DNA from: a virus
Taxonomy: Duplodnaviria > Caudoviricetes
IMG/VR virus record: IMGVR_UViG_2508501067_000008
Span: 91-64,090 of that record
Strand: one strand, 5' to 3'
Length of the DNA: 64,000 nt
Within the stretch, counting starts at the first letter, position 1. Every line of letters begins with the position of its first letter. The position numbers and the translations under genes are program-made. Positions 742-24,501 of the stretch are shown one piece after another. Below the pieces are notes generated by a model. That model was not told the origin of the DNA. It saw nothing but the letters and a program-made list of their open reading frames with translations, and made no database searches.

Positions 742-926
742 CGTTTGGCCCTCGCAAGATCGGTGAGAATGTCACGCAGTTCGGCGTTCTCGTCGGAGAG
801 ACGATCGTTTTCGGCACGAAGGGCGGCGGCATAAGCTGCGGTATCCACCGTCGAAGTACGACGGGAAGTCGGATTGGTGCATCCGGCGAGCGCAACAAGC
901 GCAAGGAGTGACAGAGTCGTTTTCAC
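738..926 (-). CDS. Small lipoprotein with coiled coil (o-spanin-like)
   Basis: MKTTLSLLALVALAGC lipobox; ALRAENDRLSDENAELRDIL heptads; distal end of late operon. Confidence 0.65.
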   Translation of the reverse strand: MKTTLSLLALVALAGCTNPTSRRTSTVDTAAYAAALRAENDRLSDENAELRDILTDLARAKR

Positions 927-950
927 GCGAATACGGCTCCGTCAACCGCA

Positions 951-1286
951 TCACGAAGCCCAAACCCGCAAAGGCGGCGTGGGCGTGACGAGGTAGTCAG
1001 CCGCGGCAGGCGGCGGGGTGTGCTCGCCCCAGGTGCGCAGGTTGAGGTGCCAGCCGGGGAGCGGGGCGTACACGGGTTGCTCGATGCCTTCGACGGTCTC
1101 GGTCTCGCCGGTGGAAGCGGAGAGCGGGCCGACCGGGTCGAGCGCGAAGTCGTCGCCGGCGGTCTGCCAGTGCGGCGTGTCGTCCTCGTCGGCGTAGAGG
1201 TAGGCCGCCAGCAGGTTGCGGGCGGTGGCCTCGTCGGGAAATCGATAGTAAAGGTCCATGTATTCGGGATGCGGATGCGTGCTCAT
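951..1286 (-). CDS. Tail-fibre-associated protein
   Basis: Follows fibre gene; ends GWHLNLR...YLVTPTPPLRVWAS, a C-terminus typical of fibre-associated proteins; start trimmed from ORF 951..1421. Confidence 0.6.
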   Translation of the reverse strand: MSTHPHPEYMDLYYRFPDEATARNLLAAYLYADEDDTPHWQTAGDDFALDPVGPLSASTGETETVEGIEQPVYAPLPGWHLNLRTWGEHTPPPAAADYLVTPTPPLRVWAS

Positions 1287-1321
1287 GGTGGTAGGCATGA
1301 GCCGACGCGGTTGTGTGTCGG

Positions 1322-2614
1322 CTAAGTGATAAGTTGGTTGAGTTGCTGCACGGTGAGTCTGCGTGGGTAGATCGCCACGCGCCTGAGATAACCAAACAGA
1401 TAATCTCCCGTGGCGCGGCAACCGAGGTACAATGCTCCGGTCATGGGGTCGGAGAACCCGACCCGGCTGCTGGCCTTGCCATCCAGGTACCCGATTGCGC
1501 CGCTACTGTCCCATGCCAAGGCTGAGCGGTGCGGTCCAAGACCTGTTGTCCCGGTCACACTGTTCTCGGACATCGGGTAACGACGCCAGCCGATCTGCGC
1601 CGCATTCGCACTAGCCGAGTATATGTACCCCCTGGAGGTATCGAAGATGCGGGGAAATCCGCTTTGACCGAGCCCGCCGCGCGCCCACTCGACATATATC
1701 GTGCCCGCATCCGTCACGTAATTTTCGATACCCGACAATATCGGTATATCCGCCGACCGCGTCGCGGCGCCCCCTCCGGGCGTGCGGATCAATGAGGAAG
1801 GGAAGGGTCCCACCTCCACCTGAACGTCGCTGATCACGAAAGCATCACCTTCGGCGTTTTGCGTCCCGTCGACATAAGCCTGAGCAGTGGAGGACGAGGC
1901 AATATAAAGGGTCAGCCCGGTGTAATCACCTGCAAGCGTATAGGTCAGCCAGATTTTCCGGAAACCGCTACCCGCCTCCGCGCTTCCGCCTGTTACACTT
2001 GGGACCGTAGTTCCCGCTCTTGAAAGCAGAAAGGTATCCGTATCCCAATCGTATCGGATATCCGCTCGACCCGTGCTGTAGTTGTGCTGTGCCCGGAATG
2101 CGATGTAGCGAGCATTCGTTTTTTTCACGACCGCCGACACAGTGTAAGTGGTACCTGCAGCAAATGTTCCCGCCACGGTTTTGGAAACAAAACCATATGC
2201 ATTCTCCGTAAACTTTGTCGCGAGACGAGCCGATCCAGGATCCCCAAACACATCGTCCACCGTCACCCAACTCATTGCCGCTGCGGTCAGGGTCGTCATT
2301 ATGTTGGAGCCGGCGGCCAAGTTCGTCCGCGCACCCCCCACCCGCAGCCCCCGGCAAAGTCTGCTGATCGGATCGAAGTCAAACGCCGGCACATCCGGGG
2401 CGAGCGTCTCCAGCAGGCCAGCGCCGTTGATGCGCGTCGCGGCGCTGGCGCGGGTAAACGTGATCGGGCCGCCGATACCGCCGAGGTGCGCTCCGTAGTT
2501 GAGCGCCGGGTACCGGGTCCAGTCGCGGTAGAACGTGCAGCCGTGGAGGCGGTCGGGGCCTCTCCTGAACGACGCGGCGGCGGCTTTGACGAGTTGCTGG
2601 CGGTAGCTGCTCAT
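1322..2614 (-). CDS. Fibre/spike protein (receptor-binding candidate)
   Basis: Start ATG 2614 (ATGA overlap); N-terminal ITFTRASAATRINGAGLLE...GARTNL motif of phage fibre/spike proteins followed by beta-rich carbohydrate-binding-like domains. Confidence 0.7.
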   Translation of the reverse strand: MSSYRQQLVKAAAASFRRGPDRLHGCTFYRDWTRYPALNYGAHLGGIGGPITFTRASAATRINGAGLLETLAPDVPAFDFDPISRLCRGLRVGGARTNLAAGSNIMTTLTAAAMSWVTVDDVFGDPGSARLATKFTENAYGFVSKTVAGTFAAGTTYTVSAVVKKTNARYIAFRAQHNYSTGRADIRYDWDTDTFLLSRAGTTVPSVTGGSAEAGSGFRKIWLTYTLAGDYTGLTLYIASSSTAQAYVDGTQNAEGDAFVISDVQVEVGPFPSSLIRTPGGGAATRSADIPILSGIENYVTDAGTIYVEWARGGLGQSGFPRIFDTSRGYIYSASANAAQIGWRRYPMSENSVTGTTGLGPHRSALAWDSSGAIGYLDGKASSRVGFSDPMTGALYLGCRATGDYLFGYLRRVAIYPRRLTVQQLNQLIT

Positions 2615-3816
2615 TCGAGGTCTCCGAAAACCGTCCACGTATCCTCGCCGGTGCGCAGGAGGATGATGACGCTGTACTGCGTGCGGGTCTTGAGCGTGGT
2701 GCTGCTGGTGACAGTCACGCCGGTGTCGCCGTGGACTTCGACCTGCCCGGCGCCGGCCTGCTGGATCAGGATTTGGCTGTTGGCATCCCAAGCCGCGCTA
2801 GCCTGCGCGGGCACCTCGATTGCGACGGGGTCGGCAGCAGTGCAGCGCAACAGCTTGCCGTTGTGGGCGAGATCGAGCGCGAAGGCATCGCTGTCCTCGT
2901 CCTCCACGAGGATTTGCCCGGCGGACGCCTGCGCAAGCGTTGCGGCGGCTTCGGCAGCGGTCTCGCTGTCAGCGGCATCGGCGGCGCTCTGGATGGCCGC
3001 GTTGGCAGCATTCGTGGCAGCGGTTGCCGCCGTTTCCGCATCGGCCTTGGCGCTGTCAGCCGCCGTCGCCGAACCCGCCGCTGCCGTGGCGCTGTTGCCC
3101 GCGTTCGTCTCCGACGTGGCCGCGTTGGTCGCACTGGTTTCGGCGGCAGCCTGTGCGGCCTCGGCATCCGTCTTCGCCGCTCCGGCCGCCGTCGCGGAAC
3201 CCGCCGCTGCCGTAGCAGCAGTCTCGGCAGTCTCTTTTGCCGTCACAGCTTCATCGCGTGCCGCTTCCGCTGCTTCCTGCGCCGCTTCGGCATCCGCTGC
3301 CGCAGCTTCCGCCCGCAGTGCGGCAGCGGTTGCGGCACCGCTCTCGGCGTCCTCCGGCGCGCTCTCGTCGCCACGATAGAGATCGTTCCGGACGGTGACG
3401 TTGATCGGCAACGAGGACGTCTCCTTGTCGTCCCGGCTGAAACCGATCTCACCTGTCACCGTTACGCTGGCCTTGTCGTCGGTATCGTCCGGCGGGTTGT
3501 AGCCGATAACCTCGTTGAGCTGGTTTGTGTTCAGGTTCGGGTAACCGATCCAGACCCAGACAGGATCATCCTCGGTTCCCTCGTTGGTCTTCGTGAACTC
3601 CTCGCAGAGCACGAGGTACTCGCCATCGAACTTGTTCCGTTCCTTGAGGCAGAACCAGACAAGTGCGGGCTCGGGATCGATGACGGTACCACTGCGGATG
3701 AACTGGATTTCCAGCGTGGGCGAATCCCCGCGGGTGAGGGTCAGCGAATTCACGATCTGCCGGTACCCCGGGCCGGAGATCAACTGGCGAAGGTCGGTGT
3801 CAAAATAGAGGCGCAC
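2611..3816 (-). CDS. Tail fibre / baseplate-upper-like protein
   Basis: BppU-like N-terminus, long Ala/Thr/Glu-rich repeat stalk, conserved-looking C-terminal domain (QAGAGQV...KTRTQYS...WTVFGDLE). Confidence 0.72.
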   Translation of the reverse strand: MRLYFDTDLRQLISGPGYRQIVNSLTLTRGDSPTLEIQFIRSGTVIDPEPALVWFCLKERNKFDGEYLVLCEEFTKTNEGTEDDPVWVWIGYPNLNTNQLNEVIGYNPPDDTDDKASVTVTGEIGFSRDDKETSSLPINVTVRNDLYRGDESAPEDAESGAATAAALRAEAAAADAEAAQEAAEAARDEAVTAKETAETAATAAAGSATAAGAAKTDAEAAQAAAETSATNAATSETNAGNSATAAAGSATAADSAKADAETAATAATNAANAAIQSAADAADSETAAEAAATLAQASAGQILVEDEDSDAFALDLAHNGKLLRCTAADPVAIEVPAQASAAWDANSQILIQQAGAGQVEVHGDTGVTVTSSTTLKTRTQYSVIILLRTGEDTWTVFGDLE

Positions 3817-3841
3817 GCGAGGGGGCGTGCGTCAACCGCAC

Positions 3842-4150
3842 TCACACCACCTGCTCCGGCCCGTCACCCGGCAGCGCGCCGCCGCCGTTGAGGCCGCGTT
3901 GCGCGGCCCGGCAACCGCCGCAGTGCTCGATGTCGGTGCCGAGGCGGGCGTCCAGCCAGCGGGCTAGCGGCTTTGCTTGCTCAGCCACTATGTCGCCGAG
4001 TTTTGGCGTTGTTTCCTTCGTGGTGCCTTCCTCTGGTGTGGATGTTGTATTTTCCGCAGGCGCAGGCAGTGGGAGAGGGGGCCACGGACGACCCGCTTTG
4101 CGTTCCCTGGCCTCACACTCCCGAATCAGTCTATCCATCAGCGCACTCAT
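3842..4150 (-). CDS. Small tail-region protein with CGGC motif
   Basis: LGDIVA...PLARWLDARLGTDIEHCGGCR; ATGA-coupled to upstream gene. Confidence 0.6.
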   Translation of the reverse strand: MSALMDRLIRECEARERKAGRPWPPLPLPAPAENTTSTPEEGTTKETTPKLGDIVAEQAKPLARWLDARLGTDIEHCGGCRAAQRGLNGGGALPGDGPEQVV

Positions 4151-6132: not shown

Positions 6133-6133
6133 G

Positions 6134-6886
6134 TCAGTTCCCGTTTACGCGCTTCCATTCATACCCGTAAACAGTTCTCATTCCCCCTGTCGTTGAAGGG
6201 GTTGACGCCACACAATTATAACCGGATGCGTAGGTGGTGATCTGGAAATTGCCGCCGATGGTATCCTGGGCAATAGTGATGACGGCGGTCTGGTTCGGCG
6301 CTTCGCCGGAGAGTGTCACCTGCATGGTACCGAGGAGGTAGTGCACAAACTTCGGCGGTACCTCCTCTGTCGTCTCTCCACCATCACCGTTGCCATCCTC
6401 GGGGAACGTATCCCCGGAGCCGATGGTGACAGCGAGAACGCGGAAATTCGAGGCACCGAGTTGGTTGGTCGTGGCCTTGATCCACACCTTTTTACCCTGT
6501 TCCGCCAGCGTGTAGAGGCCCATGTTGTCAGGCACGATATTGTTCACGTGCCCCCAGGTCACCCACACCGGCGGCGTCGTGGCTGGGATACCTTCGGGCG
6601 GATCGGCGTAACCGGCAGGTTTGGTCAAGGTGAGCGTCAGGGGGGCGGCCGGGGCTGCTACGGTCGTCCCTCCCTTGCTCGGCAGAGTCGTCGCCGTGAG
6701 GATGACCTCGGACCCGGAGTTATGGGTGCGGATGCCGCGACCCGCGACGATGTTGTCGCCCCGCGCAAGCGCCCGAATCGCGTCCTGGATGCCGTTGATC
6801 CGCGTGGCCGTCAGAGCGTCCTCAAGGTTTTCCCCCGGGGTGACGTTGGCCCCCATGGCGCTGATTGCCTGATCGAGTCTCGCCAT
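6134..6886 (-). CDS. Minor tail protein
   Basis: 250 aa, phage-like codon usage, position between tape measure and fibres. Confidence 0.65.
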   Translation of the reverse strand: MARLDQAISAMGANVTPGENLEDALTATRINGIQDAIRALARGDNIVAGRGIRTHNSGSEVILTATTLPSKGGTTVAAPAAPLTLTLTKPAGYADPPEGIPATTPPVWVTWGHVNNIVPDNMGLYTLAEQGKKVWIKATTNQLGASNFRVLAVTIGSGDTFPEDGNGDGGETTEEVPPKFVHYLLGTMQVTLSGEAPNQTAVITIAQDTIGGNFQITTYASGYNCVASTPSTTGGMRTVYGYEWKRVNGN

Positions 6887-6887
6887 G

Positions 6888-7634: not shown

Positions 7635-7721
7635 ACGGGGTGGAGCAGAAAGTCAACCGAGTTGACTTCTCCCGATGTCGGGAAGATGTGAACTTTTTGG
7701 GTTGAACGGTATGAATGGGGG

Positions 7722-8246
7722 ATGGCTAATGAAGGCGGAAACATGGCCCGCAGCAGAAAATCAACCCGTTCTTCCCCTTTGGATGAAAGATATGTAGCTT
7801 TATGGGGATTCAAGTTGCGTATCGGGCATCTGATTGAGGAAGGCGTGGCGCCAAAAGAAGCTTTGCGAGAGTCCATCCGCATTCGAGCTGAACTGCGGTG
7901 TCTGGAATTGCCTACGGGGGACGGATACGGGAGGGAGTGTAAGCGAAAACTACTGCTCTATCTGGCTGCTTGCGTGAAATGCAATACTGTACGATGGGAA
8001 CACGCTATGTTCATGAATCTTAACCAGCCCGATATTGATCTAGCCCTAACTGGTGGCGGCCCTATGGAATGGATTGCGGGCTTGCTCGGGATTTCCGGCC
8101 CCGAGACACGGCGGGAGCACGGAAGAACACTGTCGCAGGCCGCCTCGCAGGACCGAAAAAAGTCACAAGCCGAGGAGAAAGCTCACAGCTTGGCCCGCGA
8201 ACTCGACGTAATGTTCGAGTTGATGCCCGTCGACAGTCTTGAGTAA
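7722..8246 (+). CDS. Moron gene 1, hypothetical
   Basis: 174 aa, opposite orientation inside the tail operon, lower GC. Confidence 0.55.
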   Translation: MANEGGNMARSRKSTRSSPLDERYVALWGFKLRIGHLIEEGVAPKEALRESIRIRAELRCLELPTGDGYGRECKRKLLLYLAACVKCNTVRWEHAMFMNLNQPDIDLALTGGGPMEWIAGLLGISGPETRREHGRTLSQAASQDRKKSQAEEKAHSLARELDVMFELMPVDSLE

Positions 8247-8266
8247 ACTGACACACTTCAGAGCCG

Positions 8267-8719
8267 ATGTCTCCTTCAGCAAAAACCTCGACAACGACAA
8301 GCATCCTGATCCGGATTGCCGTCTTCCTGCTCATTCTGGCAGGAGTCGTGGCATGGTTCAGACCGCGGGAGTCACACTTGAAGTGGGAGTTTTTAGCGGA
8401 CCACTATTCGTCTCGTGCGCTTACTGCATTGGAGTGGGCGCATATGCGACCGGGGCCGTTCGGTGACCAAGCCGAGTACGATGCCCGCCGTGCCCAAGTC
8501 CTCTTCCGCCCAGAGGCAGAAGATCTCCACCAAGCAGCGGAAGAGTGGATGGTATGGGCATCCAAGGACGATGCCCGCCGTCACGCATATGAGAAGCTCC
8601 TTCGACTGCGGGACATAGGCGATTCGTGGGTACGGGCGGATTCGATCCCGGATTCTGAGTATTACTCTCTCAGAAGTGAGGTCTCTGAAATCAAGATGGA
8701 CCTGCTAGGTTCGTACTAA
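8267..8719 (+). CDS. Moron gene 2, single-pass membrane protein
   Basis: N-terminal TM helix ILIRIAVFLLILAGVVAWF; stop abuts tape-measure stop (convergent). Confidence 0.62.
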   Translation: MSPSAKTSTTTSILIRIAVFLLILAGVVAWFRPRESHLKWEFLADHYSSRALTALEWAHMRPGPFGDQAEYDARRAQVLFRPEAEDLHQAAEEWMVWASKDDARRHAYEKLLRLRDIGDSWVRADSIPDSEYYSLRSEVSEIKMDLLGSY

Positions 8720-11802: not shown

Positions 11803-12439
11803 TGGCTTTCGCCGACCCGTCAACCGCGACCTGCCGACGCAGACGCTCCAGGTGCATGTCGTCGACAGGGGTGCGGAATTGCAGGTCCGCGCCTTCCAGA
11901 CGGGAGTAAACGGCGCTGTACCAGCGGGCCATGCCCACGGGCATGTTCCAGGCTTCCCCGGGGCTCAGGCCCTTGAGCTGGAGATAGCAGACGGTCTCGA
12001 AATTGCCGTCCACATCATGGGCGCCACACGACACGAGCTTCTTGTCGCTGCGAAGCTCGCACCGGGGGCCGGAGTCATGGTCGCGCAAATATTCGTGGAA
12101 TTTATTGATCTCGACGACGAGACGATACCGGGTGGTCAGCCACTGCCATCGCAGCCGTGATGGCTGGACCATGTCAGGGGCGACAAACCCCGGGTTCCAC
12201 CGGCTGGAACAGATATGGACCGCCTGCCAAAGGGCCTGTGGCGTCACGGGTTTGTCGAGCAGGAGGGGCGACTGGACCGTTTCCAGGAGCAGGATATGCC
12301 AGAACGAGTACGGTGCCAGTACCCGGCCCAGCACCCGGTGCCGGTGGTTCACCGCGGCCTCGACATACCGTGTGTCGTACACAAAAGCGCCCGCCGCGGA
12401 AGGGACGGCGGGCTGACCCGGATTGGGGGAATTGCTCAT
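11789..12439 (-). CDS. Tail assembly chaperone (putative)
   Basis: Synteny between tail tube and tape measure. Confidence 0.55.
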   Translation of the reverse strand: MSNSPNPGQPAVPSAAGAFVYDTRYVEAAVNHRHRVLGRVLAPYSFWHILLLETVQSPLLLDKPVTPQALWQAVHICSSRWNPGFVAPDMVQPSRLRWQWLTTRYRLVVEINKFHEYLRDHDSGPRCELRSDKKLVSCGAHDVDGNFETVCYLQLKGLSPGEAWNMPVGMARWYSAVYSRLEGADLQFRTPVDDMHLERLRRQVAVDGSAKANGKR

Positions 12440-12828: not shown

Positions 12829-12845
12829 AATGCACCCGGACCCTG

Positions 12846-13289
12846 TCAACCGGTCCGCATGTGAACCCCGACACTCAGGCGAGCCACATCGGCCGTCTGA
12901 CGACCGGCGGAAGTCTCCCCCTGCGTGACGATAGACCAGCCCTTGAGAGCGACACCCTCGTTCTCGAATGCCTGCGGGCAACGACTCAAAGCCTGCAACA
13001 CGTGCCCGAACCACTCCTTCCGGATCGCCGTGTTCTGGTCATCCATGTCGGTGACCAGCGCAACCGCGACGTTGGCGATGTAGATCGGACCAGTCGGAAG
13101 CCTCGGTGTCGCCGTGTCACAATACACGAACACGTGCATTGGCGGGACGGTGGCATCACGATCCGACGCTGCCACAATGGCGATCCGGTCCGGGTCTTCC
13201 AGCGGGCCGTGGGTACGCAGCAAGGCGACAAAGGCTTCCTCGATGCGCAGGTTGATCGGGCCGGAGACTGAAAAGACCGGATTGCTCAT
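12846..13289 (-). CDS. Tail terminator/completion protein (putative)
   Basis: 147 aa, synteny upstream of tail tube. Confidence 0.55.
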   Translation of the reverse strand: MSNPVFSVSGPINLRIEEAFVALLRTHGPLEDPDRIAIVAASDRDATVPPMHVFVYCDTATPRLPTGPIYIANVAVALVTDMDDQNTAIRKEWFGHVLQALSRCPQAFENEGVALKGWSIVTQGETSAGRQTADVARLSVGVHMRTG

Positions 13290-14074: not shown

Positions 14075-14403
14075 GTGAGTGGTCCAAGCTGTAGTTCGAC
14101 GGTATCGCCGGTGTAGCCGACATCGGGGTTGTTCCGGACACGGAAGGTTCCACCGGGGATGGTGACGTGGAGCCCCCTGGCGCGACCAGCGCGGGCCTTC
14201 GCGTCCTCCCAGCAGGCGATGCTGAGGATGACCGTGCCCGTGGCTTCCTGGCTGCGGCCCGCCTTGCCGTCGGCAATCGTGTCGGCGAGGTCGAAACCGT
14301 GGATGATGCACGGGCAGGTCTTGCCCGCGATCGTGCAGGTGTCCCCGAAAACGTCGGTGGCGGGCTCGAAGGCCAGACTGAATGCCTCGGTAAAGTCGTT
14401 CAT
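14071..14403 (-). CDS. Head closure / head-tail joining protein (putative)
   Basis: 110 aa after capsid gene; start ATG 14403 or GTG 14415. Confidence 0.6.
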   Translation of the reverse strand: MNDFTEAFSLAFEPATDVFGDTCTIAGKTCPCIIHGFDLADTIADGKAGRSQEATGTVILSIACWEDAKARAGRARGLHVTIPGGTFRVRNNPDVGYTGDTVELQLGPLT

Positions 14404-14415: not shown

Positions 14416-14447
14416 AAAAAGCCCCGAGTCAACTTGTGACCCGGGGC
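14416..14447 (-). terminator. Intrinsic terminator downstream of major capsid gene
   Basis: Minus strand GCCCCG-GGTC..GACT-CGGGGC hairpin then TTTTT. Confidence 0.7.
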
Positions 14448-14473
14448 CGAACAACCGTGACAGGAGGAGAGAA

Positions 14474-15424: not shown

Positions 15425-15468
15425 TATGAAACGGCTTTGAAAATTTTGTTACGTTTTGTTGCAGTGGA

Positions 15469-15852: not shown

Positions 15853-15893
15853 GGTGGATTCGTATTCTGTTTCGTTTTGTTGCAGTATCCGGG

Positions 15894-17228
15894 TCAGGCT
15901 TTCTTGAGGCCGCGACGAACGAGGTAGTCGTTGTAGTCCTGCGGGTGAGCGCGGATGACAGCCTCGAACGCCTTCGCCTGGGTGAGCTTCGGGTCGGACT
16001 CGAGTGTCTCGATAACGCGCTTCTCGAAATCACCGGGCTCGGCGGTGCCAAAGTTAACGACAGCGCCGGTTTTGGCTTTGAGCTGCACCGGACCCGCGCC
16101 GTGGCTGACCGCGGCGCCACCGGTTTCGAGCATCTCGTGGAGGAACCGGTTCTGCTCGAGAACGGCGTCGAATTTTTCGGTAATGCCGTCGATGGCGGCC
16201 TGCTGGGCGGCCAGTTCGCGTTCGGCCTTGACCTGCTGGAGCTGGGCGGCAAAGGTACGGACTTCCGTGAGAACCGCCTGAAGACCGGCGGCACCGGCGA
16301 CTTCGCCTTCACCGGCACCTTCACCTTCGCCCTCCCCGGTTCCCTCGTCTTCGCCTTCACCAGCCTGAGCTTCGGCGATGGCTTCGTTGACCTCCTCGCG
16401 AGTGATGCCGAGCGCGGCAAGGTCTTCGTCGCTCATTCCGGCGAGGTCCTCGAGCGAGGGCGGATCGGCCATGAGATTCTGCTGGGACTCGATGGAATCG
16501 AGACGTTCGGTGATCGGGGCGAGAGCCTCGGCGATGGCTTGTTTGAGTTCTTCGGGCGTCATAAGTTTTGCATCCGCAGAACTGTCAACCGGCTTGGCCT
16601 CGAACATCCCGTCGGGGTTTGCTGCCGGGAGCGTCACGTAGTCGACCGAGATCAGCTCCTCGCAGCGGGCGGCGTTTTTGCCGCTGGCGGTTTTTTCCGT
16701 TTTCGCAGGCGGCAGAAAACTGGCACTCAGGCCAACCCCGCGGGGCATGACTTCCGCCACTTCGAGGATCGTGTCTTTCTGCGGATGGGTCTTGAGAAGA
16801 TGCCAGTCTGCCTTGAGCTTCGCGCCGTCGAGGTGGAAGTTGGTGAGATAACCGCACACGGCAGCAGCGCCGGATTTATGGTCGATCTTCACCGGCACCT
16901 GTCCCTTGGTTTCCGCGCAGGTCTTGATCTGGTCGAGCGTGGTGTTGTCGACTTCGAGGTCATGACCCCGGGCGATCAAACCGCTGGTGATGACCGACAC
17001 GCCGCGAATGACAGCGTTTACCTTGTCGACATTCTCCGCGCAAAAATCCGTATGGAAATGGAGGGCTTCGCGGGGGTCGCCGAATCCGGTCGGCGCAACG
17101 GGAACCGGGTTGGTCCAGATCTTGCGAAGAATTTTTCCGCTCACAACACCCCGGGCGGCAAACGAACCGTCGGACGAACGGAGCCGGGGTTTGGGCGGGA
17201 GAGCAGGCTTGGCAGGCTTGATGGGCAT
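15894..17228 (-). CDS. Prohead protease fused to scaffold domain
   Basis: Protease-like N-half (IDH, GLSASF, SVDYVTLPAANPDGMF) and acidic coiled-coil C-half. Confidence 0.82.
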   Translation of the reverse strand: MPIKPAKPALPPKPRLRSSDGSFAARGVVSGKILRKIWTNPVPVAPTGFGDPREALHFHTDFCAENVDKVNAVIRGVSVITSGLIARGHDLEVDNTTLDQIKTCAETKGQVPVKIDHKSGAAAVCGYLTNFHLDGAKLKADWHLLKTHPQKDTILEVAEVMPRGVGLSASFLPPAKTEKTASGKNAARCEELISVDYVTLPAANPDGMFEAKPVDSSADAKLMTPEELKQAIAEALAPITERLDSIESQQNLMADPPSLEDLAGMSDEDLAALGITREEVNEAIAEAQAGEGEDEGTGEGEGEGAGEGEVAGAAGLQAVLTEVRTFAAQLQQVKAERELAAQQAAIDGITEKFDAVLEQNRFLHEMLETGGAAVSHGAGPVQLKAKTGAVVNFGTAEPGDFEKRVIETLESDPKLTQAKAFEAVIRAHPQDYNDYLVRRGLKKA

Positions 17229-17233: not shown

Positions 17234-17268
17234 AAAAAGCCCGTCAACCGTGGAAACAGCTGACGGGC
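17234..17268 (-). terminator. Intrinsic terminator immediately upstream of protease start
   Basis: Minus strand GCCCGTCAGC-loop-GTTGACGGGC then TTTTT. Confidence 0.72.
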
Positions 17269-17296
17269 CTCATCCTGAAACCCTGCAAACCAAAAA

Positions 17297-17722
17297 TTAC
17301 TTGGCCGGAACTACTTTCCGGTAGGCGGCTCTGGCCGCGTTGGCCGTTGCATCAGCGGCGGTGCGGGCACCCGAAGCGGTGGCTTTCCCGCCTTTCTGGA
17401 CACCGGCTTTCGCGCCCGAGTAGGCATTGACGATGTCGCGGTTGTTGCGACGGGCTCCGGTCTTGAGAGCGCCCAAAAGCCCTGAACCGGAATTGACGGG
17501 CTTGCCGAGAACTTGCTTCTGCCAGCCACGGCCACGAAGCAGGGCAGAGCCGACATAACCGGCGCCACCAAGAGCCGCAGTCCCCGCGACAACCTTGCCC
17601 GCCGTGCGAAGGGCGGACGATTTTTCCTCCTGCCGAGGGTCGCGGGCGAACCCGACACTCTGGAGTTTGGCTTCAAGCTGGGCGTCAAGCTGGACGAGAC
17701 GGGATGTGACAGGATTGCTCAT
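17297..17722 (-). CDS. Basic glycine-zipper protein, possible internal virion protein
   Basis: ATG 17722; AKLQSVGFAR motif then GKVVAGTAALGGAGYVGSALL helix. Confidence 0.62.
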   Translation of the reverse strand: MSNPVTSRLVQLDAQLEAKLQSVGFARDPRQEEKSSALRTAGKVVAGTAALGGAGYVGSALLRGRGWQKQVLGKPVNSGSGLLGALKTGARRNNRDIVNAYSGAKAGVQKGGKATASGARTAADATANAARAAYRKVVPAK

Positions 17723-17877
17723 ATGGATTGTTTTGTTTTGGAGGCTGTCAACCGGGCCTTGCGCCGGAGCTCGGCTCGCGCAACGAGATGGATAATCCGC
17801 CACCCCAGCCAGCAGCCGAGAACAGAGGCTGTGACGAAAACTCCGATCGCAGCAAAAATGTAGAGAACCCAGTTCAT
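17719..17877 (-). CDS. 52-aa single-pass membrane protein (not in ORF track)
   Basis: MNWVLYIFAAIGVFVTASVLGCWLGWRIIHLVARAELRRKARL...; ATGA overlaps at both ends. Confidence 0.6.
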   Translation of the reverse strand: MNWVLYIFAAIGVFVTASVLGCWLGWRIIHLVARAELRRKARLTASKTKQSI

Positions 17878-19076
17878 GCGAATTTCACTCCCCGGATAAT
17901 GTTATCGGCGACCGCGGCGCCGGCGGGTCTGGCGGTCTTGATCTGACGACGCAGCGCAGCGTTACGGTACGCCAGGTACCCGGTAGCACCGGCGCCGGCT
18001 ACGGTACCGGCGATAGCGATATTCCGGATACGCCGGATATTGTCGGTTTTCTCGCCCCAGGTTTTCTCCCGGCGATCCCGTTTGCGGGAACCCGGAGCAT
18101 AGACGCGCGCGGAACGTCCGCGGGCGTCACGCACATCCCAACCCTTTTCGAGAGCGTCGGCGTAGGCGAACTGTGCAAGCCGAACCAGTCGCTCATGCGC
18201 CGCCATCGCGACAAGGAGCGGGTTCCGGCGGGCGGACAGACCTGTCTTCTGACGAAGCTTTTCCTTCCCTTCCGCCATGCGATGGGTGAGACGATCCATA
18301 CGGGCGCCGACAGTGTTTCCGGTTCGCGGCTTCTGCCCGTCGCGCTTCTTCTGCTGGCCGGAAGTGGCAAGGCTGTTGGCGAGCAACGGAACCCCGATCG
18401 CGGCGGTCAATGCGGCACGCTTGAACCATGGCTTGGTATAGAAGGGGCGTTCCACTTTCTTCCCGGCAGCCATGTCGCCAATATCTCCGGCAGCTTCACC
18501 CGCCCGGTTGACCCAAGGGGTGATGCGACTGGCTTTCCGGTACGCGGAAAGGGGGCTGGTTGAAACGCCGAAGGTGCCGTTGGAGAGACGATCCTGAAAG
18601 CGAACGAGAGCAAGACGCGCAGCCATGCCGCGGCGTACGCCGACCGTATTCTTGAGAGTTCTGGACTCGGCGATTTTTCTCAACCGATCCTTCTTTGCGA
18701 TCTCCTCGCTGGCGATCTGGACCTTTGATTTCACGCGGGGCGTCGCTTTGGGCTTTACCGAGACGGGCTGGTTGGCCGGGGACGCTTTGGGTCGAGGCGC
18801 CGGAACAACCGGGGGGACAGATGCGGACGCGGCAGGCTGGACTGTCGTACGCTGCGTGGCCGCGGCTCTGCGCTGCCGTGCCTCATGAAGAAGCTGGTAG
18901 AAACGCTGCTTCTTCGCCGAGGGGCGAGTACGCGCATACGCATAGAACCCGCCAACAGTCGCCGCGGCGCCTGCACCCGCCAGCACCTTGCCGAGAGCAG
19001 AACGCTGATACTCCGCGGGCTTCTCTGTTTCGGGAGGTGTGCGAAATTCGACGATACGACGGAGCGACGGCTTCAT
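17874..19076 (-). CDS. Basic modular protein with three Gly/Ala hydrophobic helices, possible internal/ejection protein
   Basis: 400 aa between portal and protease; repeated xxF motifs (IVEF, LVRF, LAQF, GVKF). Confidence 0.65.
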   Translation of the reverse strand: MKPSLRRIVEFRTPPETEKPAEYQRSALGKVLAGAGAAATVGGFYAYARTRPSAKKQRFYQLLHEARQRRAAATQRTTVQPAASASVPPVVPAPRPKASPANQPVSVKPKATPRVKSKVQIASEEIAKKDRLRKIAESRTLKNTVGVRRGMAARLALVRFQDRLSNGTFGVSTSPLSAYRKASRITPWVNRAGEAAGDIGDMAAGKKVERPFYTKPWFKRAALTAAIGVPLLANSLATSGQQKKRDGQKPRTGNTVGARMDRLTHRMAEGKEKLRQKTGLSARRNPLLVAMAAHERLVRLAQFAYADALEKGWDVRDARGRSARVYAPGSRKRDRREKTWGEKTDNIRRIRNIAIAGTVAGAGATGYLAYRNAALRRQIKTARPAGAAVADNIIRGVKFA

Positions 19077-20821
19077 GTGTTTCCAGGTGGAGCGTCAACC
19101 GGAGACTTCGTCCCGGGTAAATTTGCGGCCACCGCGACCGGCTGCGGGGTCGGCACGATTGTCTCGGCGATAACCGGGTCGAGCTCGAACACACCGACCA
19201 GAGTAGCGACAGCCTCCTCACGGGGAAGCTGGCCGGACGCAACTTTCTCGAGGATGTCGACCAGAGTCTTGGTGGCTCCTTCGCCGAGATCGCTGATCGT
19301 CGAGGTCGGGGCGGGATCGAGTGCCTCCTGCGCGGCGGCAAGCTGGTTGCTGGCATCCGGGAAGCGGCCCATCGCCACCATCTCGACAGGGACGCCCGCT
19401 GCGGCGCACTTGTTGCGGAGGATGACGACTTCCTTGATGAGCTGGTCGGTAAGGTCTTCGTAATCGTAGCCCTCTTCCCCGGCGATCTCCGACGCGCTCT
19501 TGAGCCCGGCCTGAAGGAGGGCGAGATTCGCATCAGTGTCATAGCCGGTATCGGCGGTAAGTGCTTTCCCGAACTGCCAGCGACCCCAGTCGAAATTCTT
19601 GTTGGGCGGAAGCTCGCCGACAGCAATGGCGTTGGCGAGCACAGCGCGTTTCACCCCGTCCAGCAGCGACGTGACGAGGATTTCCTGAAACCGGGCGAAC
19701 ATGCGCTGAAGCTGCTGGGCCTCGAGCCGGATAGTGGCCCCGCCAAACTTCGACATGTCGAAAAAGCCGTACGGGAGATTGAGGCCAAAGGCGATGTCCT
19801 TGAGAGCGGCCTCGATGTAAGCCATGAAGGCCCCGCTGGGACGGTTGCCCGTATTGAAAGGCGTGATATCCTCGTTGGGCCGAAGCCGCAGGAGCTTGTT
19901 GCCTTCGACTTTTTCGGTCGGGTTGCCATTGGCATCGCGGCTGACACCGTCCCACATACCAGCCGATCCCGCCCCGGATTTTGCAAGAGGGTCGGTGACG
20001 CGGATCACGCCTGCAATCGACGCCGCCCACTTGGCCGCGCCCCGCTCAAAACTGAACATCTCGTAGAGGTCGCGAGCCTGGGCAACCACCGGGGCAAGCC
20101 AGGAAGTGCCGCGGTACTCATCCGACCGGAGAGGCTTGCGGAGAAGAAAGAAATTCTTCGCATCCGCCGTGGCCTCGAACTCGTACCGGCTGGATTTGCG
20201 GTCACGTTTGAAGATGTCGTAACTCACGGGTTGCCCCAGGGAATTAAGCCGGATACCCTGAACGTAATCATCCTCCTGCTGGTTGGCGACGGTGTTAGGG
20301 TCTCCGATACGGTCGGCCTCGATGCACTGGAGCTGGAGTCTGGCGCCGTTGCGGACCAGGTAGAAGCCGAAGTCCCCGTCACGCAGCATCGACCGGAAGC
20401 CGACTTCGACCAGAGTGCGGAAATTGGTGCGCCCGGTAATGTCGGCATCCCGAGTAAACCATTTTTCGAGGTATGCCTCGGCCAGGGAATCCCAGGCAGG
20501 ATCGCCGGACTGGGACTGGTACAGGACCTGGGAACACACGTACTGGGCAACGCGGTCGAGAACTCCCCGGATGACGGGCATGTTGCGTTCGAGGTCCCGG
20601 GCTTCCCAGATCAGCTTGAGCCGGTCCATCGCCATGCGCGGGGTCTCGGAACTGGCATTTTTCGCCATGCCTCCGCTGCTGCCGCGCTTCACCCCCGGGT
20701 TGGCGGCATCGTACCCGAACAAGGTCAACTTCTCCCGGGCGATAGCCCGTTGCAACGCGTAGGTCGGAGCTACCGCGGCGAGAGCGCGTTCAAAAATGGA
20801 AGGCTTGGGATCAACGGGCAT
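19073..20821 (-). CDS. Portal protein (lambda gpB family)
   Basis: 582 aa; YDAA, EARDLERN, IEADRI, RGTSWLAPV motifs. Confidence 0.9.
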   Translation of the reverse strand: MPVDPKPSIFERALAAVAPTYALQRAIAREKLTLFGYDAANPGVKRGSSGGMAKNASSETPRMAMDRLKLIWEARDLERNMPVIRGVLDRVAQYVCSQVLYQSQSGDPAWDSLAEAYLEKWFTRDADITGRTNFRTLVEVGFRSMLRDGDFGFYLVRNGARLQLQCIEADRIGDPNTVANQQEDDYVQGIRLNSLGQPVSYDIFKRDRKSSRYEFEATADAKNFFLLRKPLRSDEYRGTSWLAPVVAQARDLYEMFSFERGAAKWAASIAGVIRVTDPLAKSGAGSAGMWDGVSRDANGNPTEKVEGNKLLRLRPNEDITPFNTGNRPSGAFMAYIEAALKDIAFGLNLPYGFFDMSKFGGATIRLEAQQLQRMFARFQEILVTSLLDGVKRAVLANAIAVGELPPNKNFDWGRWQFGKALTADTGYDTDANLALLQAGLKSASEIAGEEGYDYEDLTDQLIKEVVILRNKCAAAGVPVEMVAMGRFPDASNQLAAAQEALDPAPTSTISDLGEGATKTLVDILEKVASGQLPREEAVATLVGVFELDPVIAETIVPTPQPVAVAANLPGTKSPVDAPPGNT

Positions 20822-20855
20822 GGCAACGCCATGCCGGAAGCGTCAACCGGCGGGG

Positions 20856-21104
20856 TCACCAGGTCTCGATGCCGCTGAAATCCGGGACCATGTGCCGACG
20901 GCCGTCGTCACTTCCCCCACGCTCCTGCTCGACCTGGGTGGCGGCGGCCAGCCGGGTACGCATTTCCGCCGTACTCCGGGAGTAGGACCGGTTGCCTTCG
21001 GCCTGGGCGTTGAAAGGGTTCCGCGACCACTTCTTCAGCCAGACGATCTCCGCAGCAAGCTCGGCTGCGGTGTACCCCCGGTAAATTTGAAGCCACTCTT
21101 CCAT
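20856..21104 (-). CDS. gpW-like head-tail adaptor
   Basis: 82 aa just upstream of portal. Confidence 0.6.
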   Translation of the reverse strand: MEEWLQIYRGYTAAELAAEIVWLKKWSRNPFNAQAEGNRSYSRSTAEMRTRLAAATQVEQERGGSDDGRRHMVPDFSGIETW

Positions 21105-21120
21105 CGGACCCGGGAGGCAG

Positions 21121-21774
21121 TCAACCGAGGTCCCGGACGACTTCCTCGAGAACCTTGCGCAACTCGACTCTCATCTTCGGATTGAACTTCTCCCGGGAGG
21201 CGGCGTAGTCGCGGGCGAACTGGCGGGCCTGCTCAAGAAAAGATTTTGTCCCGGTGTCATGAGGTTCCAGCCGGACCGTCGACAACGCACGACGGAGAGT
21301 TTCCCGAAGACCCTTGACCGTATAGCCCTCCCGAACGGTCTTCTCGATCCAGAATTCGTACTGTCCATCCGGTACCCGCCCGACGATTTCAGCAGCATGA
21401 TGAAAAGTTAACTTCTCCCGACGTCGGGAAAACGGGAGCTTGCAGCAGACATACTTTGCGTTCGCCAAGGTCTGGACAGCATAACCAGTCTCTTCGGCGA
21501 TACGGGCGTACAACTCTTCCGGCACGCGTTTTCCCCAGTGAGAGTCAAGGTAGTGAGCCTGCCCGTACGCCAGCCAGTCACCAATCATCCACATGGCCGC
21601 ACCGGTAACTTCCGTCACTTTCCGGCCAATGGACATCCAGGCCTCGTAGTCGAGGCCCTCCGGGATAACCAGACCGCAACGGCTGGTCTTAACCCCGGCC
21701 GGAAGGTGCGGGCTGGACTCGGCGGTCGAGACGGAGAGGACTTCTGTTGGTACGGGTGTAGCGGGAGCAGGCAT
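21121..21774 (-). CDS. LmbU-like DNA-binding protein
   Basis: WMIGDWLAYG...TGYAVQTLAN...SRRREKLTFHHAAE pattern recalled from the LmbU family. Confidence 0.65.
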   Translation of the reverse strand: MPAPATPVPTEVLSVSTAESSPHLPAGVKTSRCGLVIPEGLDYEAWMSIGRKVTEVTGAAMWMIGDWLAYGQAHYLDSHWGKRVPEELYARIAEETGYAVQTLANAKYVCCKLPFSRRREKLTFHHAAEIVGRVPDGQYEFWIEKTVREGYTVKGLRETLRRALSTVRLEPHDTGTKSFLEQARQFARDYAASREKFNPKMRVELRKVLEEVVRDLG

Positions 21775-22117
21775 TGGCGGACTTGTTGTTGAAGGTTTTC
21801 GGGAGGTGTAAATCGTCCTGGATTTTCGCTACACGCTTGCTCACGGCGGCCTTGGTAATCCCGTGGCGGGTGGCGGTGCTTGTCATGGTCTCGTCCTCGA
21901 GATCGGCGTCGCCGAGGGCCAGGTAGAGACAGTCGATCGTCAGTCGTGCGCGGGTCTGGCTACGCACGTAGCTTACAAGACGACGCGCAAACTCAAGTGT
22001 CTCGGGCGGATGTGCCGTGTCAGTCGGAGTGTCCGGCTCCGCTTCGTCGGGGTATATAAAGCCGGTAGAGCATTCTTTCGAGTTCTCGTGCAGCACCATG
22101 AGCCTGGAAATAGGCAA
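21689..22117 (-). CDS. HTH protein, sigma-70 region-4-like
   Basis: TMTSTATRHGITKAAVSKRVAKI helix-turn-helix; TTG start. Confidence 0.6.
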   Translation of the reverse strand: MPISRLMVLHENSKECSTGFIYPDEAEPDTPTDTAHPPETLEFARRLVSYVRSQTRARLTIDCLYLALGDADLEDETMTSTATRHGITKAAVSKRVAKIQDDLHLPKTFNNKSANACSRYTRTNRSPLRLDRRVQPAPSGRG

Positions 22118-22132
22118 AACCCGAGGCGTTCG

Positions 22133-23974
22133 TCAACTTTTTATTGCGTTTTGTTGCGGTTCGTTGACCACATCCATCAAGCCCGTCGCCATCGCGGCCA
22201 CAAGAGCCTGCCGGAAACAGCTTCCCCAGTGGTCATCAGGGCGTTTCTGCGTCCACTCGACTTCGACAACCCCGTTCGCCTTTATCCGCTCCATACGCTC
22301 GTAGGCGGTGAGCTGCATCTTGTACTCGTGGAGCATGTCGCCGTCGTTCGGCAGTTCCAGTGACGGGCCAATCCCGCGCATGCAAGCCTCCGCACGATCC
22401 AGCATCGACGACTTGGAGAAAAGGAGCTGGCGGATCGGGCGGACACGGTTGGCCTGGTTGGTGCCAAGGAACGGATCGACAAAGGTCCATGTGTACGGCA
22501 GCCGCAGCTCGCCGAGACGATAGAACGGAGCCTTGTCGCCCTTCATCGCCTTCCAGGCATAGTTCCCGTCGGGCAGAACGCCCGATTCCATGACATAGCC
22601 ATAGACCTCCGAAGCCCAGTGGCCGCTGTCGATAACGATATTCTGGGCGGGCACGGCATACGTGGCAGCCAGACTGCGGAGTTCCTCCACGCTCCACGCC
22701 TTGCCCCACGCGAGCACCCGCTGGGCGCCGCCCGGCGCAAAGGCATGGACGGACCAGTAAAAGTGACGACCGCCCTTGCCCTGGACGTCGATGGACAGGA
22801 ACCGGCGGACTTCGTTGAAGGGCGCCGTGAAATCGCTGACCCGGTCGTCGATATAGCCCTCGCTGACCGCAAAGCGCAAACGGTCCTCCCAGGGGCGCCC
22901 GAGAGACTCGGTCACGAAGGTCTTCATGGGGTCATGATTCCCGTGATCGAGGTCCACCTGGGCCATGACGTACTTCTGGACGAGGTCACGCCACTTTACC
23001 CAGAACGGCAGCAGGGCGTTCCAGGTGTAGCTCTTCAGCTCCTTCGGGGCCTTCGGGTTGTGGCTCACCCATACGCCTTCCGACATGATCCGCCAACGGG
23101 CCTGCGGCTCGTCACGCTGCATGTATCCGCATCTTGGGCACACGTAACGAATATGGGGCGCCAGCGCGTCGAAGTCCCACCGGCCATCCTCGTCGACGAC
23201 CCCTGGCACATCCCGGAACTTCACGCATTTGCGGGTCTGCGGATGCTCCGCACGGACGTTCTCCCACTCGAGCGGCCCGCGGTAATCACACCCTGCCGGG
23301 TTCAGGCAGGGCACGTGCCAATGCTCCTGCGAGCCAGCGAGCCATTCGTTATGCAAAACGTCCTTCTCGTCACCGGGAGTCGAAAGGATCAGGATGCGGC
23401 TGTTCCACCAGGTGCGGACACGCATCTTCGCCATTGGCAGAGCCCACTTCGGCCAATTCCTGACCTCGTCGCAAAGCAGGTAACGACGACTGCGGGACTG
23501 GAGCTTGGCCTTGCTGTTGGAGCCCACGATCTCGAACAGCATCGTCGGGAAATAAATTTCCATCGACTTTGCCAAGGTGCGGCTGTCGGGGATTTGCCGC
23601 TTCACCGGCTGGCACATGTGGAAGGCGGGCATCAGGCGCTCGTTGGCAAACTTGAGTCCTTCCTCGTCGGACGCCGCGATCCACATCGCGGGTGACGGGT
23701 CCTCGGCGACGATCCAGTTCGCAAGGATCATTCCGGTCTCGGTCTTCGAGGACTGGGCGGAACACATGACCGTGATCTGCCGGACGGAGTTGTCGGCAAA
23801 CTCTTCCATAAGTTTTCGCACCCAGGGTGAATTTTCGGACCGCCACTTGCCCGGGATGTTGGAGACCGGAACTTCGTAGTGCTCCTCGGCCCATTTCCAC
23901 GGGGGGCGCGTGTCAGGAGGGCGCCAGGCGAGGGAGGCCGCCCGTGCGATGATGTTGGGCCGGTCGGCGCTCAT
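22133..23974 (-). CDS. Terminase large subunit (lambda GpA family)
   Basis: SAQSSKTE Walker A, LLCDEV Walker B, ILSTP, CxxC zinc motifs, IDVQ nuclease motif; start ATG 23974. Confidence 0.93.
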   Translation of the reverse strand: MSADRPNIIARAASLAWRPPDTRPPWKWAEEHYEVPVSNIPGKWRSENSPWVRKLMEEFADNSVRQITVMCSAQSSKTETGMILANWIVAEDPSPAMWIAASDEEGLKFANERLMPAFHMCQPVKRQIPDSRTLAKSMEIYFPTMLFEIVGSNSKAKLQSRSRRYLLCDEVRNWPKWALPMAKMRVRTWWNSRILILSTPGDEKDVLHNEWLAGSQEHWHVPCLNPAGCDYRGPLEWENVRAEHPQTRKCVKFRDVPGVVDEDGRWDFDALAPHIRYVCPRCGYMQRDEPQARWRIMSEGVWVSHNPKAPKELKSYTWNALLPFWVKWRDLVQKYVMAQVDLDHGNHDPMKTFVTESLGRPWEDRLRFAVSEGYIDDRVSDFTAPFNEVRRFLSIDVQGKGGRHFYWSVHAFAPGGAQRVLAWGKAWSVEELRSLAATYAVPAQNIVIDSGHWASEVYGYVMESGVLPDGNYAWKAMKGDKAPFYRLGELRLPYTWTFVDPFLGTNQANRVRPIRQLLFSKSSMLDRAEACMRGIGPSLELPNDGDMLHEYKMQLTAYERMERIKANGVVEVEWTQKRPDDHWGSCFRQALVAAMATGLMDVVNEPQQNAIKS

Positions 23975-24471
23975 TTGGCGGCATGGAGCGGGCGCGACGT
24001 CAACTGGCCGAGGGCCTCGACGATCTCCTCCCGGAGGATGCGCTCGGCATCCACCTCGGTCCGTCCGACGACCAGAGGGGCGCACGTGCCCGGAATCTTG
24101 CACAACACGGTCTTGGCCCGGATGACCAGATCGCCCACCCACGCCTCGACATCGACGTTTGCCGTGTATTCGTTGCGACGGACGTTCAGCTCGAATTCGA
24201 GTTTCTGGTTCTGCAACCGGAGACGCTCGACCTCGAGATTGCGTTTGTCGTCCGGACCCACGGTCGGATCGGTGAGGGATGCAAAGTTGGCGTTGATGAA
24301 CCCCTGCCACTCCTGGATGTGGTAACGCCCGTCCTTGGACCGCCCGGGATTCCCCTCCATCTTGAGGGCCTTCTGGATAATTTTCCGGTCCCGGGGCGGG
24401 GTCAGGTAACCGCCGAGCTCAGTCTGGTTTTTGGCGAAGGCAGGAACTTTGCCGGGTTTTCGTTTAGCCAT
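23971..24471 (-). CDS. Terminase small subunit (Nu1-like)
   Basis: N-terminal wHTH-like part, EVERLRLQNQKLEFEL coiled coil; directly upstream of TerL. Confidence 0.78.
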   Translation of the reverse strand: MAKRKPGKVPAFAKNQTELGGYLTPPRDRKIIQKALKMEGNPGRSKDGRYHIQEWQGFINANFASLTDPTVGPDDKRNLEVERLRLQNQKLEFELNVRRNEYTANVDVEAWVGDLVIRAKTVLCKIPGTCAPLVVGRTEVDAERILREEIVEALGQLTSRPLHAAK

Positions 24472-24501
24472 CGCCGGGAACGGCGATGTCAACCAGGCAA
24501 A

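Follow-up and report, generated by a model that had tools for sequence, protein, structure and literature searches.

The DNA analyzed here, a window of 64,000 nt (positions 91 to 64,090 of the IMG/VR record IMGVR_UViG_2508501067_000008), makes up nearly all of a 64,090-bp provirus record with a GC content of 59.5%, and its late genes carry, a short and fixed distance before their start codons, an asymmetric box with the core TTGAC that is the subject of this work. The plus strand from ~24.9 kb onward encodes the replication and early genes (PolA, a primase-helicase, an intein-bearing helicase, a ligase and AAA+ ATPases), and an integrase gene lies at 62846-64000; the minus strand, from 24.5 kb down to position 1, encodes a lambda-like late module (the small terminase TerS, the large terminase TerL, portal, major head protein and tape measure). 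As a 6.2-Mb contig encodes an identical portal protein, this phage is a prophage; relatives of its portal come from metagenome-assembled genomes of Verrucomicrobiota (Akkermansia, Luteolibacter, Chthoniobacter and others) and from IMG/VR contigs, and the phage is a temperate phage of Verrucomicrobia. The phage collection searched contains no near-identical record, and a scan of viral contigs with a single protein gave no match. For comparison we used 102 portal-related loci totaling 1.39 Mb (L-numbered, e.g. L023, L024 and L025) and a complete 96.7-kb relative (G407); the host control consisted of 400 kb of related host chromosome (the G001 sample, L123-L142) and five host genomes.

The box has the form CGGTTGAC in this phage; more generally, it consists of TTGAC with G, A or T as the 5′ base and A favored as the 3′ base. 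On the late sense strand of the window CGGTTGAC occurs in 11 copies vs. 0.62 expected and GGTTGAC in 12 copies vs. 1.75 expected; the late antisense strand holds two copies of GGTTGAC and one of CGGTTGAC; and the 38-kb early region holds no sense copy of either word (antisense copies: two of GGTTGAC, none of CGGTTGAC). Each of the 11 copies lies 14-24 nt 5′ of an ATG or GTG that opens an open reading frame (ORF) of at least 62 codons. The motif enrichment that the preliminary description of this stretch proposed to check is present on the late sense strand; over the entire window, with the two strands taken together, GTCAAC is not enriched (42 vs. 36 expected).

The same layout is shared with hundreds of uncultured relatives, in which the box stands before most late genes that start independently. 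Correctly spaced boxes in the 102 loci number 331 on the late-gene strand vs. 45 on the opposite strand, and the distance from GTTGAC to the start of a long ORF shows a sharp peak: 43, 55, 23 and 39 instances at 14, 15, 16 and 17 nt, with just 2 (13 nt) and 4 (18 nt) on either side. Profiles made on the same loci for one-base variants, for the reversed word and for the reverse strand are all flat. Nearly half of the sense GTTGACA heptamers (47%) stand at the right distance from a start. A single-substitution scan found TTGAC invariant, the 5′ base G, A or T and never C, and the 3′ A preferred; this substitution profile is that of a −35 hexamer. The layout persists from 41% to 67% GC and at portal identities down to ~32% (range 32-74%); at orthologous sites (terS, the gene preceding portal, portal itself, the three head genes that follow and a tail gene) the box is kept and the spacer is unrelated; and ~20 of the 23 sense boxes of G407 fall within its first 50 kb, the structural half. 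The flanking bases differ by clade (GG-TTGAC-g vs. G-TTGAC-A). Box-linked starts also carry a weak second element, GGY, with G at −3 in 48%, G at −2 in 52% and a pyrimidine at −1 in 71% of cases, as against 22-33% for G and 45-49% for a pyrimidine at the same positions of starts without a box. The TGA within the box serves the preceding gene as its stop at 54 of 170 sites; a recoding or frame-locked role for it was rejected, since the spacing has no codon-phase preference and the coincidence with stops fits genome compaction.

The host DNA that we sampled does not carry this layout: the 400 kb of related host chromosome show no spacing peak at start codons, and the five host genomes contain 28-61 pattern hits each, some of them grouped in prophages. 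These results led us to reject a host-wide signal, and a phage-encoded reader is therefore needed. The signal is real, robust and lineage-wide, and two expectations of the preliminary description, conservation in related phages and confinement to phage late genes, are borne out by the 14-17-nt peak, by the flat host profile and by the empty early sense strand. The literature searched contained no earlier description of the box.

One relative, L042, deserves separate mention. It contains tandem arrays of boxes with a 9-bp period, TTGACGGGG × 4.6, at 3808-3848, 6348-6389 and 12046-12082, the first of them between ORFs, and these look like a multi-site protein-binding array; it also contains heptamer repeats (TCTGGAT, CAAAATT and AGAGACC, in four to five copies) in intergenic gaps just upstream of boxes, for example at 9570-9600, 9943-9971, 11692-11724 and 16366-16397.

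The 13 GTCAAC positions listed in the preliminary description are all present, and the gaps to the start codons given here were derived anew; two further sites had been missed. All sites lie on the minus strand. In the order of transcription, the first is TGGTTGAC at 24488..24495, 16 nt from the ATG at 24471 of the small terminase gene (23971-24471), and is kept at the orthologous site in L023, L024 and L025. The next, missed before, is (CA)GTTGAC (CAGTTGAC) at 23999..24004, 24 nt from the ATG at 23974 of the large terminase gene (22133-23974), which overlaps the TerS stop (ATGA). The site at 22132..22137, (AA)GTTGAC, is present as described and lies 14 nt from a TTG; orthologs, in contrast, place the start at the ATG at 22099, 32 nt away, which belongs to a helix-turn-helix (HTH) gene that we term g3. 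Seen from this ATG the site is a normally placed −35 hexamer, followed by a 17-nt spacer, a weak −10 (CTATTT) and 8 nt to the start codon, with the same geometry in L023, L024, L025 and L057; it has ordinary −35 geometry and likely gives a leaderless σ70-type transcript of g3.

Further along, CGGTTGAC stands at 21120..21127, 15 nt from the ATG at 21104 of an 82-aa gene upstream of the portal gene; at 20842..20849, 20 nt from the ATG at 20821 of the portal gene (19073-20821), a gap that is 14 nt in L023, L024 and L025; at 19094..19101, within the portal coding sequence, 17 nt from the ATG at 19076 of the next gene (17874-19076), which overlaps the portal stop; and at 17747..17754, 24 nt from the ATG at 17722 (gene 17297-17722). 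The copy at 17243-17250 lies in the 3′ arm of a terminator-like hairpin followed by a T-run (17234..17268), 14 nt from the ATG at 17228 of a 444-aa head gene (15894-17228), and L023, L024 and L025 have the same arrangement. Within the 444-aa gene a second site that had been missed, CGGTTGAC at 16584..16591, precedes an in-frame internal ATG at 16562 by 21 nt; this ATG is conserved and would yield a 222-aa product nested in the larger one, with the position of a scaffold gene as in lambda C/Nu3, and both box and internal ATG recur in L023, L024, L025 and L052, a relative with 41% GC. The hairpin after the major head gene (14420..14448), which resembles an intrinsic terminator, likewise holds a box in its 3′ arm, (AA)GTTGAC (AAGTTGAC, 14428-14433), 24 nt from the ATG at 14403 of the gene 14071-14403, which aligns with the L023 ortholog, or 12 nt from an in-frame GTG.

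The remaining copies are all CGGTTGAC. At 12845..12852 the box is 16 nt from the ATG at 12828, and its TGA is the stop codon of the upstream gene (12846-13289); at 11819..11826 it lies within the upstream gene, 16 nt from the ATG at 11802 of the tape-measure gene (8722-11802); at 7652..7659 it forms the 3′ half of a perfect palindrome, GTCAACtcgGTTGAC, 17 nt from the ATG at 7634 of the first late gene beyond two opposite-strand ORFs; and at 3831..3838 and 941..948 it precedes GTG starts by 14 nt (GTG 3816, gene 2611-3816; GTG 926, gene 738-926).

Mapping the ~27 late genes by start type gave three groups: genes that begin on, or right next to, the stop codon of their predecessor (ATGA, GTGA or TGAnATG) have no box; the major head gene, the gene at the decoration position and g3 have an A-rich GYAAYAAA element; and the remaining late genes with placeable starts have the box. 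Our search of this map for exceptions found no clear non-overlapping cistron without either box or A-rich element. The A-rich element occurs as tandem CGYAAYAAA with a 10-bp period directly 5′ of the three genes just named and of several early genes (the ligase gene and gene 56341 among them), at 15444-15463, 15870-15884, 22139-22159, 33758, 39353, 49622-49665, 56323 and 59254, and is a second class of start-linked element. Separately, an AT-rich stretch of the minus strand at 24540-24600, with TATAAT at ~24558-24563, lies ~75 nt upstream of the TerS box and could act as the main late promoter, of a conventional kind. Two plus-strand ORFs of 174 and 150 aa (7722-8719), for which Pfam gave no match, split the late module between the tape-measure gene and the tail gene that comes next; they resemble an insertion of the moron type. 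In the early region, a 1301-aa protein with helicase, DUF2800 and PD-(D/E)XK parts (52380-56285) carries, near its N-terminus, an intein with Hint and LAGLIDADG domains.

The box resembles the −35 consensus TTGACA of σ70 promoters, and we asked how far known promoter and ribosome-binding signals account for it. Transcription from a σ70-type promoter starts ~29-30 nt past the −35 hexamer. At the boxes the start codon comes 13-16 nt past the hexamer, and the spacers at the window sites hold neither a Shine-Dalgarno (SD)-like nor a −10-like element, so the remark in the preliminary description that the box is too near the start codon for a σ70 −35 is correct. A canonical −35/−10 arrangement, or an extended −10 that uses the TG of the ATG, would imply spacers of 17-20 nt and lacks its −10 hexamer; a scan for consensus promoters found promoter-like sites no commoner than in shuffled sequence. 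Transcription cannot start downstream of the annotated start codon either, as N-terminal residues just after it are conserved (portal being the example) and no second in-frame start exists at 29-32 nt. We also rejected a σ54 element (GG at −24 and GC at −12, separated by ten bases), because here GG adjoins TTGAC and no conserved position follows or precedes it at 8-10 nt, and a two-block promoter of the extracytoplasmic function (ECF) type, because there is no second block. The phage also uses ordinary promoter geometry, as seen in a canonical σ70-type early promoter with an extended −10 at 26052..26080 on the plus strand (TTGACG-17-TAAGAT with TG), whose −35 is GTTGAC without the CGG extension; Akkermansia promoters likewise have −35 and −10 at ordinary positions (PMC4782308).

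Nor does the box behave as an SD-type ribosome-binding site. Its spacing of 14-17 nt compares with ~5-10 nt for an SD sequence; two Verrucomicrobia 16S rRNAs end in the canonical GGATCACCTCCTTTCT and do not contain, in their sense strand, GTCAAC(C), the complement of the box; and L005, a relative that uses SD sequences, has a true SD between box and ATG, and the box therefore does not replace the SD there. In a crude count that includes false starts, few long ORFs have an SD-like word before their first ATG (host sample, 74 of 761; window, 12 of 134), which suggests that SD use is scarce in this host group.

Several features bear on whether the box acts as DNA or as RNA. The boxes at 14428 and 17243, and those at the matching positions of L023, L024 and L025, lie in the 3′ arm of a strong terminator-like hairpin with T-run, whereas elsewhere boxes lie in hairpin loops or unpaired; a conserved RNA structure (loop, stem or unpaired) was rejected for this inconsistency, and an Rfam search gave no hits. 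Over 279 sites, the predicted probability of being unpaired is 0.425 vs. 0.458 in shuffles (p = 0.011), i.e. the box is slightly more paired. The boxes in terminator stems, the lack of selection for accessibility and the SD that can stand between box and ATG favor recognition of double-stranded DNA, and the box would thus be a DNA-level signal of the late module. The RNA-level initiation signal offered as an alternative in the preliminary description is weakened by these observations and by the missing 16S rRNA complement, and nothing specific speaks for antitermination, which had been offered with it.

If a phage protein reads the box, the best candidate is g3, a 136-aa HTH protein of an unnamed family encoded at 21689..22099 on the minus strand, for which we have an alignment, an AlphaFold2 model, fold matches and the family distribution. 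Together with g4 (21121..21774, minus strand), a 217-aa protein that resembles DUF1016_N, also has an HTH and is co-conserved with g3 in eight loci, it forms a pair of overlapping HTH genes between TerL and portal. The overlap is 86 nt (21689-21774) in different frames, and both frames are conserved in L023, L024, L025, L057 and L010 with overlaps of 50-100 nt; either true overlapping genes or a programmed frameshift fusion would fit. The g3 family comprises at least 158 unnamed proteins with a conserved core …HG(I/V)TKQAVSK(R/S)V…; it has no Pfam domain, and the Sigma70_r4 model does not match g3. The model of g3 has a pLDDT (predicted local distance difference test) score of 75, with the core above 90. 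VIA-align relates it to σ region 4 and LuxR-type HTH domains (Z 5.0-6.2, root-mean-square deviation ~3 Å over 55-65 residues), and 17 of its top 25 matches are σ region 4, including SigE region 4 on its −35 DNA; Foldseek E-values are 0.3 or weaker, and a profile match of the HTH to the repressor structure 7r6r has E = 0.096. This assignment of a σ-region-4-like fold to the modeled g3 is suggestive only.

Members of the family were found in 17 of the 102 loci and in 7 of 15 additional records, and none of the three records with a completeness of at least 97% lacks one; conversely, 21 of the 22 loci fetched via g3 carry boxes. In about a dozen of them the box of the divergent neighbor overlaps the g3 start codon, as ATGTCAAC; in the clade of the window, TTGAC(A/G) lies 5′ of g3 with 17 nt to a weak −10 and 6-8 nt from there to the start, so that the −35 is the box, and the g3 promoter in this clade is, as read from its layout, a canonical leaderless promoter. 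Because the box overlaps the −35 or the start codon of g3 itself, these layouts suggest autoregulation by a box-binding protein, which may be an activator or a repressor. Of the three regulators that had been suggested, then, the gene at 21689 is a plausible reader, given its HTH fold and the fact that most of the related records tested have its family together with the box; the gene at 21121 is no more than its co-conserved neighbor, and, considered as a possible σ2-like partner, resembles DUF1016_N by sequence; and nothing ties the gene at 26143 to the box.

We favor, with a probability of roughly 45%, the reading that the boxes are compact factor-dependent late promoters giving leaderless or near-leaderless mRNAs. 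A phage-encoded factor, most likely g3, would read the box and make the host RNA polymerase begin transcription on the start codon that lies 14-17 nt downstream, or no more than ~3 nt away from it; every late gene, or short block of translationally coupled genes, would have a compact promoter to itself; and translational coupling would serve the genes that overlap the preceding one (ATGA and similar). We infer the binding of the box by g3, the transcription start at this place and the activating effect. In this scheme a DNA site would be held within ±1.5 nt of the start codon because transcript ends are fixed relative to the codon, and the sharp 14-17-nt spacing accordingly supports the start codon as the transcript's 5′ end. 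A pyrimidine at −1 and a purine at +1 are the usual context of a start site (PMC4782308), and this context, together with GGY being found only at box-bearing starts, supports the compact-promoter reading. Leaderless mRNAs are common in Verrucomicrobia, accounting for ~10% of Akkermansia start sites (PMC4782308), and their frequency in the phylum and the leaderless geometry of g3 point the same way. Boxes in the 3′ arms of terminators, just before the next gene, fit re-initiation as well as reading at the DNA level. Further support comes from boxes kept within coding sequence and before the nested internal start, from the −35-like preference profile combined with a g3 core that resembles σ region 4, and from the presence of g3 in the three near-complete records and of boxes in 21 of 22 g3-selected loci.

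Several observations weigh against this reading. What speaks most strongly against it is that a melting element is lacking altogether: no −10 hexamer (TAnnnT) occupies a conserved position 16-18 bp downstream in motif-anchored or ATG-anchored profiles, even in relatives with 41-47% GC. An activator centered near −18 would take the place of σ region 2/3 on a normal promoter, and lambda-like modules of head and tail genes do not usually have a promoter for nearly every late cistron. Pfam models found no σ region 2, σ region 4 or RNA polymerase gene among the phage proteins. As for g3, a fold Z-score of ~6 is middling for helical domains, and HTH folds are common; its co-occurrence with the box is imperfect on fragmentary records; and the overlap of the box with its own −35 or start fits a repressor equally well. 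What stands of the late-promoter proposal in the preliminary description is thus a phage-specific late signal, for which the promoter is the favored reading; the −10-like melting element and the phage σ factor or RNA polymerase gene that would complete it were not found. It is possible, and rather doubtful, that the lineage of phages of the Planctomycetes-Verrucomicrobia-Chlamydiae (PVC) group has a new promoter architecture altogether, in which a lone σ-region-4-like phage protein reads a −35 word at ~−20 and, with a minimal GGY/R start-site element and no −10, brings the host RNA polymerase to initiate on the start codon of each late gene.

The strongest rival, which we consider unlikely, is a system of stoperator-like operators: an HTH protein of the phage, be it g3 or a different one, would bind the boxes as asymmetric sites, silence or gate the late module in the lysogen by blocking elongation or initiation at each gene start, and autoregulate its own gene. 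The absent −10 poses no problem here, and the box on the −35 hexamer or start codon of g3 is the classic layout of negative autoregulation; g3 is antisense to the late genes in many relatives and so has its own transcription unit; and L042 has its intergenic array of boxes in 9-bp tandem. The stoperators of phage L5 share a TTGACA core, the sense orientation and the short intergenic gaps (PMC9283540, PMC6550527), and 9 of ~20 L5 sites end 11-18 nt before a start codon. A roadblock, however, needs no fixed distance, yet the 14-17-nt window is sharp on both sides, and boxes that lie in the coding sequence of the preceding gene, or before the in-frame start nested in a gene, keep to it too; sites are absent from the early region, whereas those of L5 lie in both arms; the core does not vary across a lineage that spans 32-74% in portal identity and 41-67% in GC, whereas immunity specificities normally diverge (PMC6550527); and the box-specific GGY beside the start codon would go unexplained.

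Less probable again is an mRNA signal that would replace the SD sequence, in which the box, at the 5′ edge of the ribosome footprint, would serve phage-specific translation initiation, re-initiation or processing. It would suit a phage without SD sequences whose non-overlapping late cistrons carry either box or A-rich element, the stops of upstream genes at the box TGA (54 of 170), the GGY bases, which would belong to the leader, and the box before the nested internal start, a position at which phages of the lambda type have an internal ribosome-binding site; repeats linked to starts have a phage precedent in the start-associated sequences (SAS) of cluster K mycobacteriophages (PMC3203893). 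Set against these points, the 3′ ends of the two 16S rRNAs are canonical and the complement GUCAAC(C) is missing from both, and the host ribosome alone cannot be the reader of a layout absent from the host DNA sampled; no gene for an RNA-binding or ribosomal protein was found, S21 being absent; boxes lie inside strong terminator stems and are not kept unpaired overall; L005 has its SD between box and ATG; and the spacing shows no codon-phase preference. Very improbable, finally, is a pause tether, by which σ region 4, or g3 on the polymerase flap, would grip the box during elongation and hold the polymerase ~30-35 nt downstream as the start codon exits the RNA channel, so that ribosomes load without an SD. 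The geometry is apt, as 13-16 nt from hexamer to ATG plus ~14 nt of RNA in the polymerase equal the normal distance from −35 to active site, and the −35-like preference and the σ4-like fold of g3 agree with it; no −10-like pause element was found, boxes after terminators would be unexplained, and to our knowledge no known pause uses a −35-like element alone.

If the favored reading, a compact late promoter, is right, a bacterial RNA polymerase would be directed without a −10, by a −35 word ~20 bp from the start, which lies outside current promoter models; if the box is an operator or an RNA signal, it would still represent an undescribed, lineage-wide control of late genes in phages of the phylum of Akkermansia, where SD sequences are little used. 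In either case the box is a precise marker for late-gene starts, including nested internal ones, in phages and prophages of Verrucomicrobia. It also yields a small family of candidate regulators and a compact regulatory part for genetic tools in poorly tractable bacteria.

Compared with known systems, the box matches the −35 element of a housekeeping σ70 promoter (−35 TTGACA, 17 bp, −10 TATAAT) both in sequence and in the substitutions that it tolerates; it differs in that the start codon sits where the spacer or extended −10 would be and that no −10 follows. T4 late promoters (TATAAATA; gp55, gp33 and gp45) consist of a single short element before many late genes and depend on phage factors, and the boxes are similar in being a single short element without second hexamer that is repeated before late genes. 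The T4 element, however, is an AT-rich −10 box read by a σ2-like protein, with leaders of varying length, whereas the element here is a −35 word, and no gp55-like or σ2-like gene was found. Many late promoters distributed over the late genes and served by the host polymerase with a phage factor, as proposed here, are also known from temperate phages, namely P1 (Lpa) and the Thermus phages Lalka27a and phiYS40: P1 has 11 Lpa-dependent late promoters (PMC10695390), and Lalka27a has 16 late promoters, mostly leaderless; in these Thermus phages most transcripts are leaderless and start at the A or G of the start codon (bioRxiv 10.64898/2026.04.20.719267). The Thermus late promoters differ from the boxes in that they keep a −10 element (TAGGGT) and have a conserved C at −25. 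P1 late promoters also retain a −10 element. The Lpa site, moreover, is a 9-bp inverted repeat (PMC10695390), whereas the box is asymmetric, lacks a −10 and places a −35 word near −20.

The SAS and extended SAS (ESAS) of cluster K phages are, like the box, phage-specific asymmetric repeats in one orientation directly upstream of many start codons; they are mostly ATG-linked and rare in the host, sometimes hold the upstream stop, and their function is unknown (PMC3203893). They differ in being 13-bp sequences, GGGATAGGAGCCC, with an AGGAG SD core, 3-7 bp from the start of non-structural genes (PMC3203893); the box, by contrast, is 14-17 nt away, has no rRNA complementarity and serves structural genes. 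The stoperators of the L5 gp71 type, which bind the immunity repressor and block elongation in a manner that depends on their orientation, are likewise short asymmetric sites in many copies, placed in short intergenic gaps and nearly all oriented with transcription. In the direction of transcription the L5 stoperators read CTTGACAnCCACC (as measured on L5), one copy doubles as a promoter −35 hexamer, and the binder is a monomeric HTH protein (PMC9283540, PMC6550527). They are 13 bp long, lie in both genome arms and at the early lytic promoter, keep no strict distance from start codons and vary in sequence with immunity group, whereas the box has a core of 5-8 bp, occurs at late genes only, does not share the stoperator distribution over early and late arms with the early lytic promoter, is locked at 14-17 nt and is invariant across a deep lineage. 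The box could thus be a variant on known phage late-gene control elements, and could be categorically new if a −10-less promoter is confirmed.

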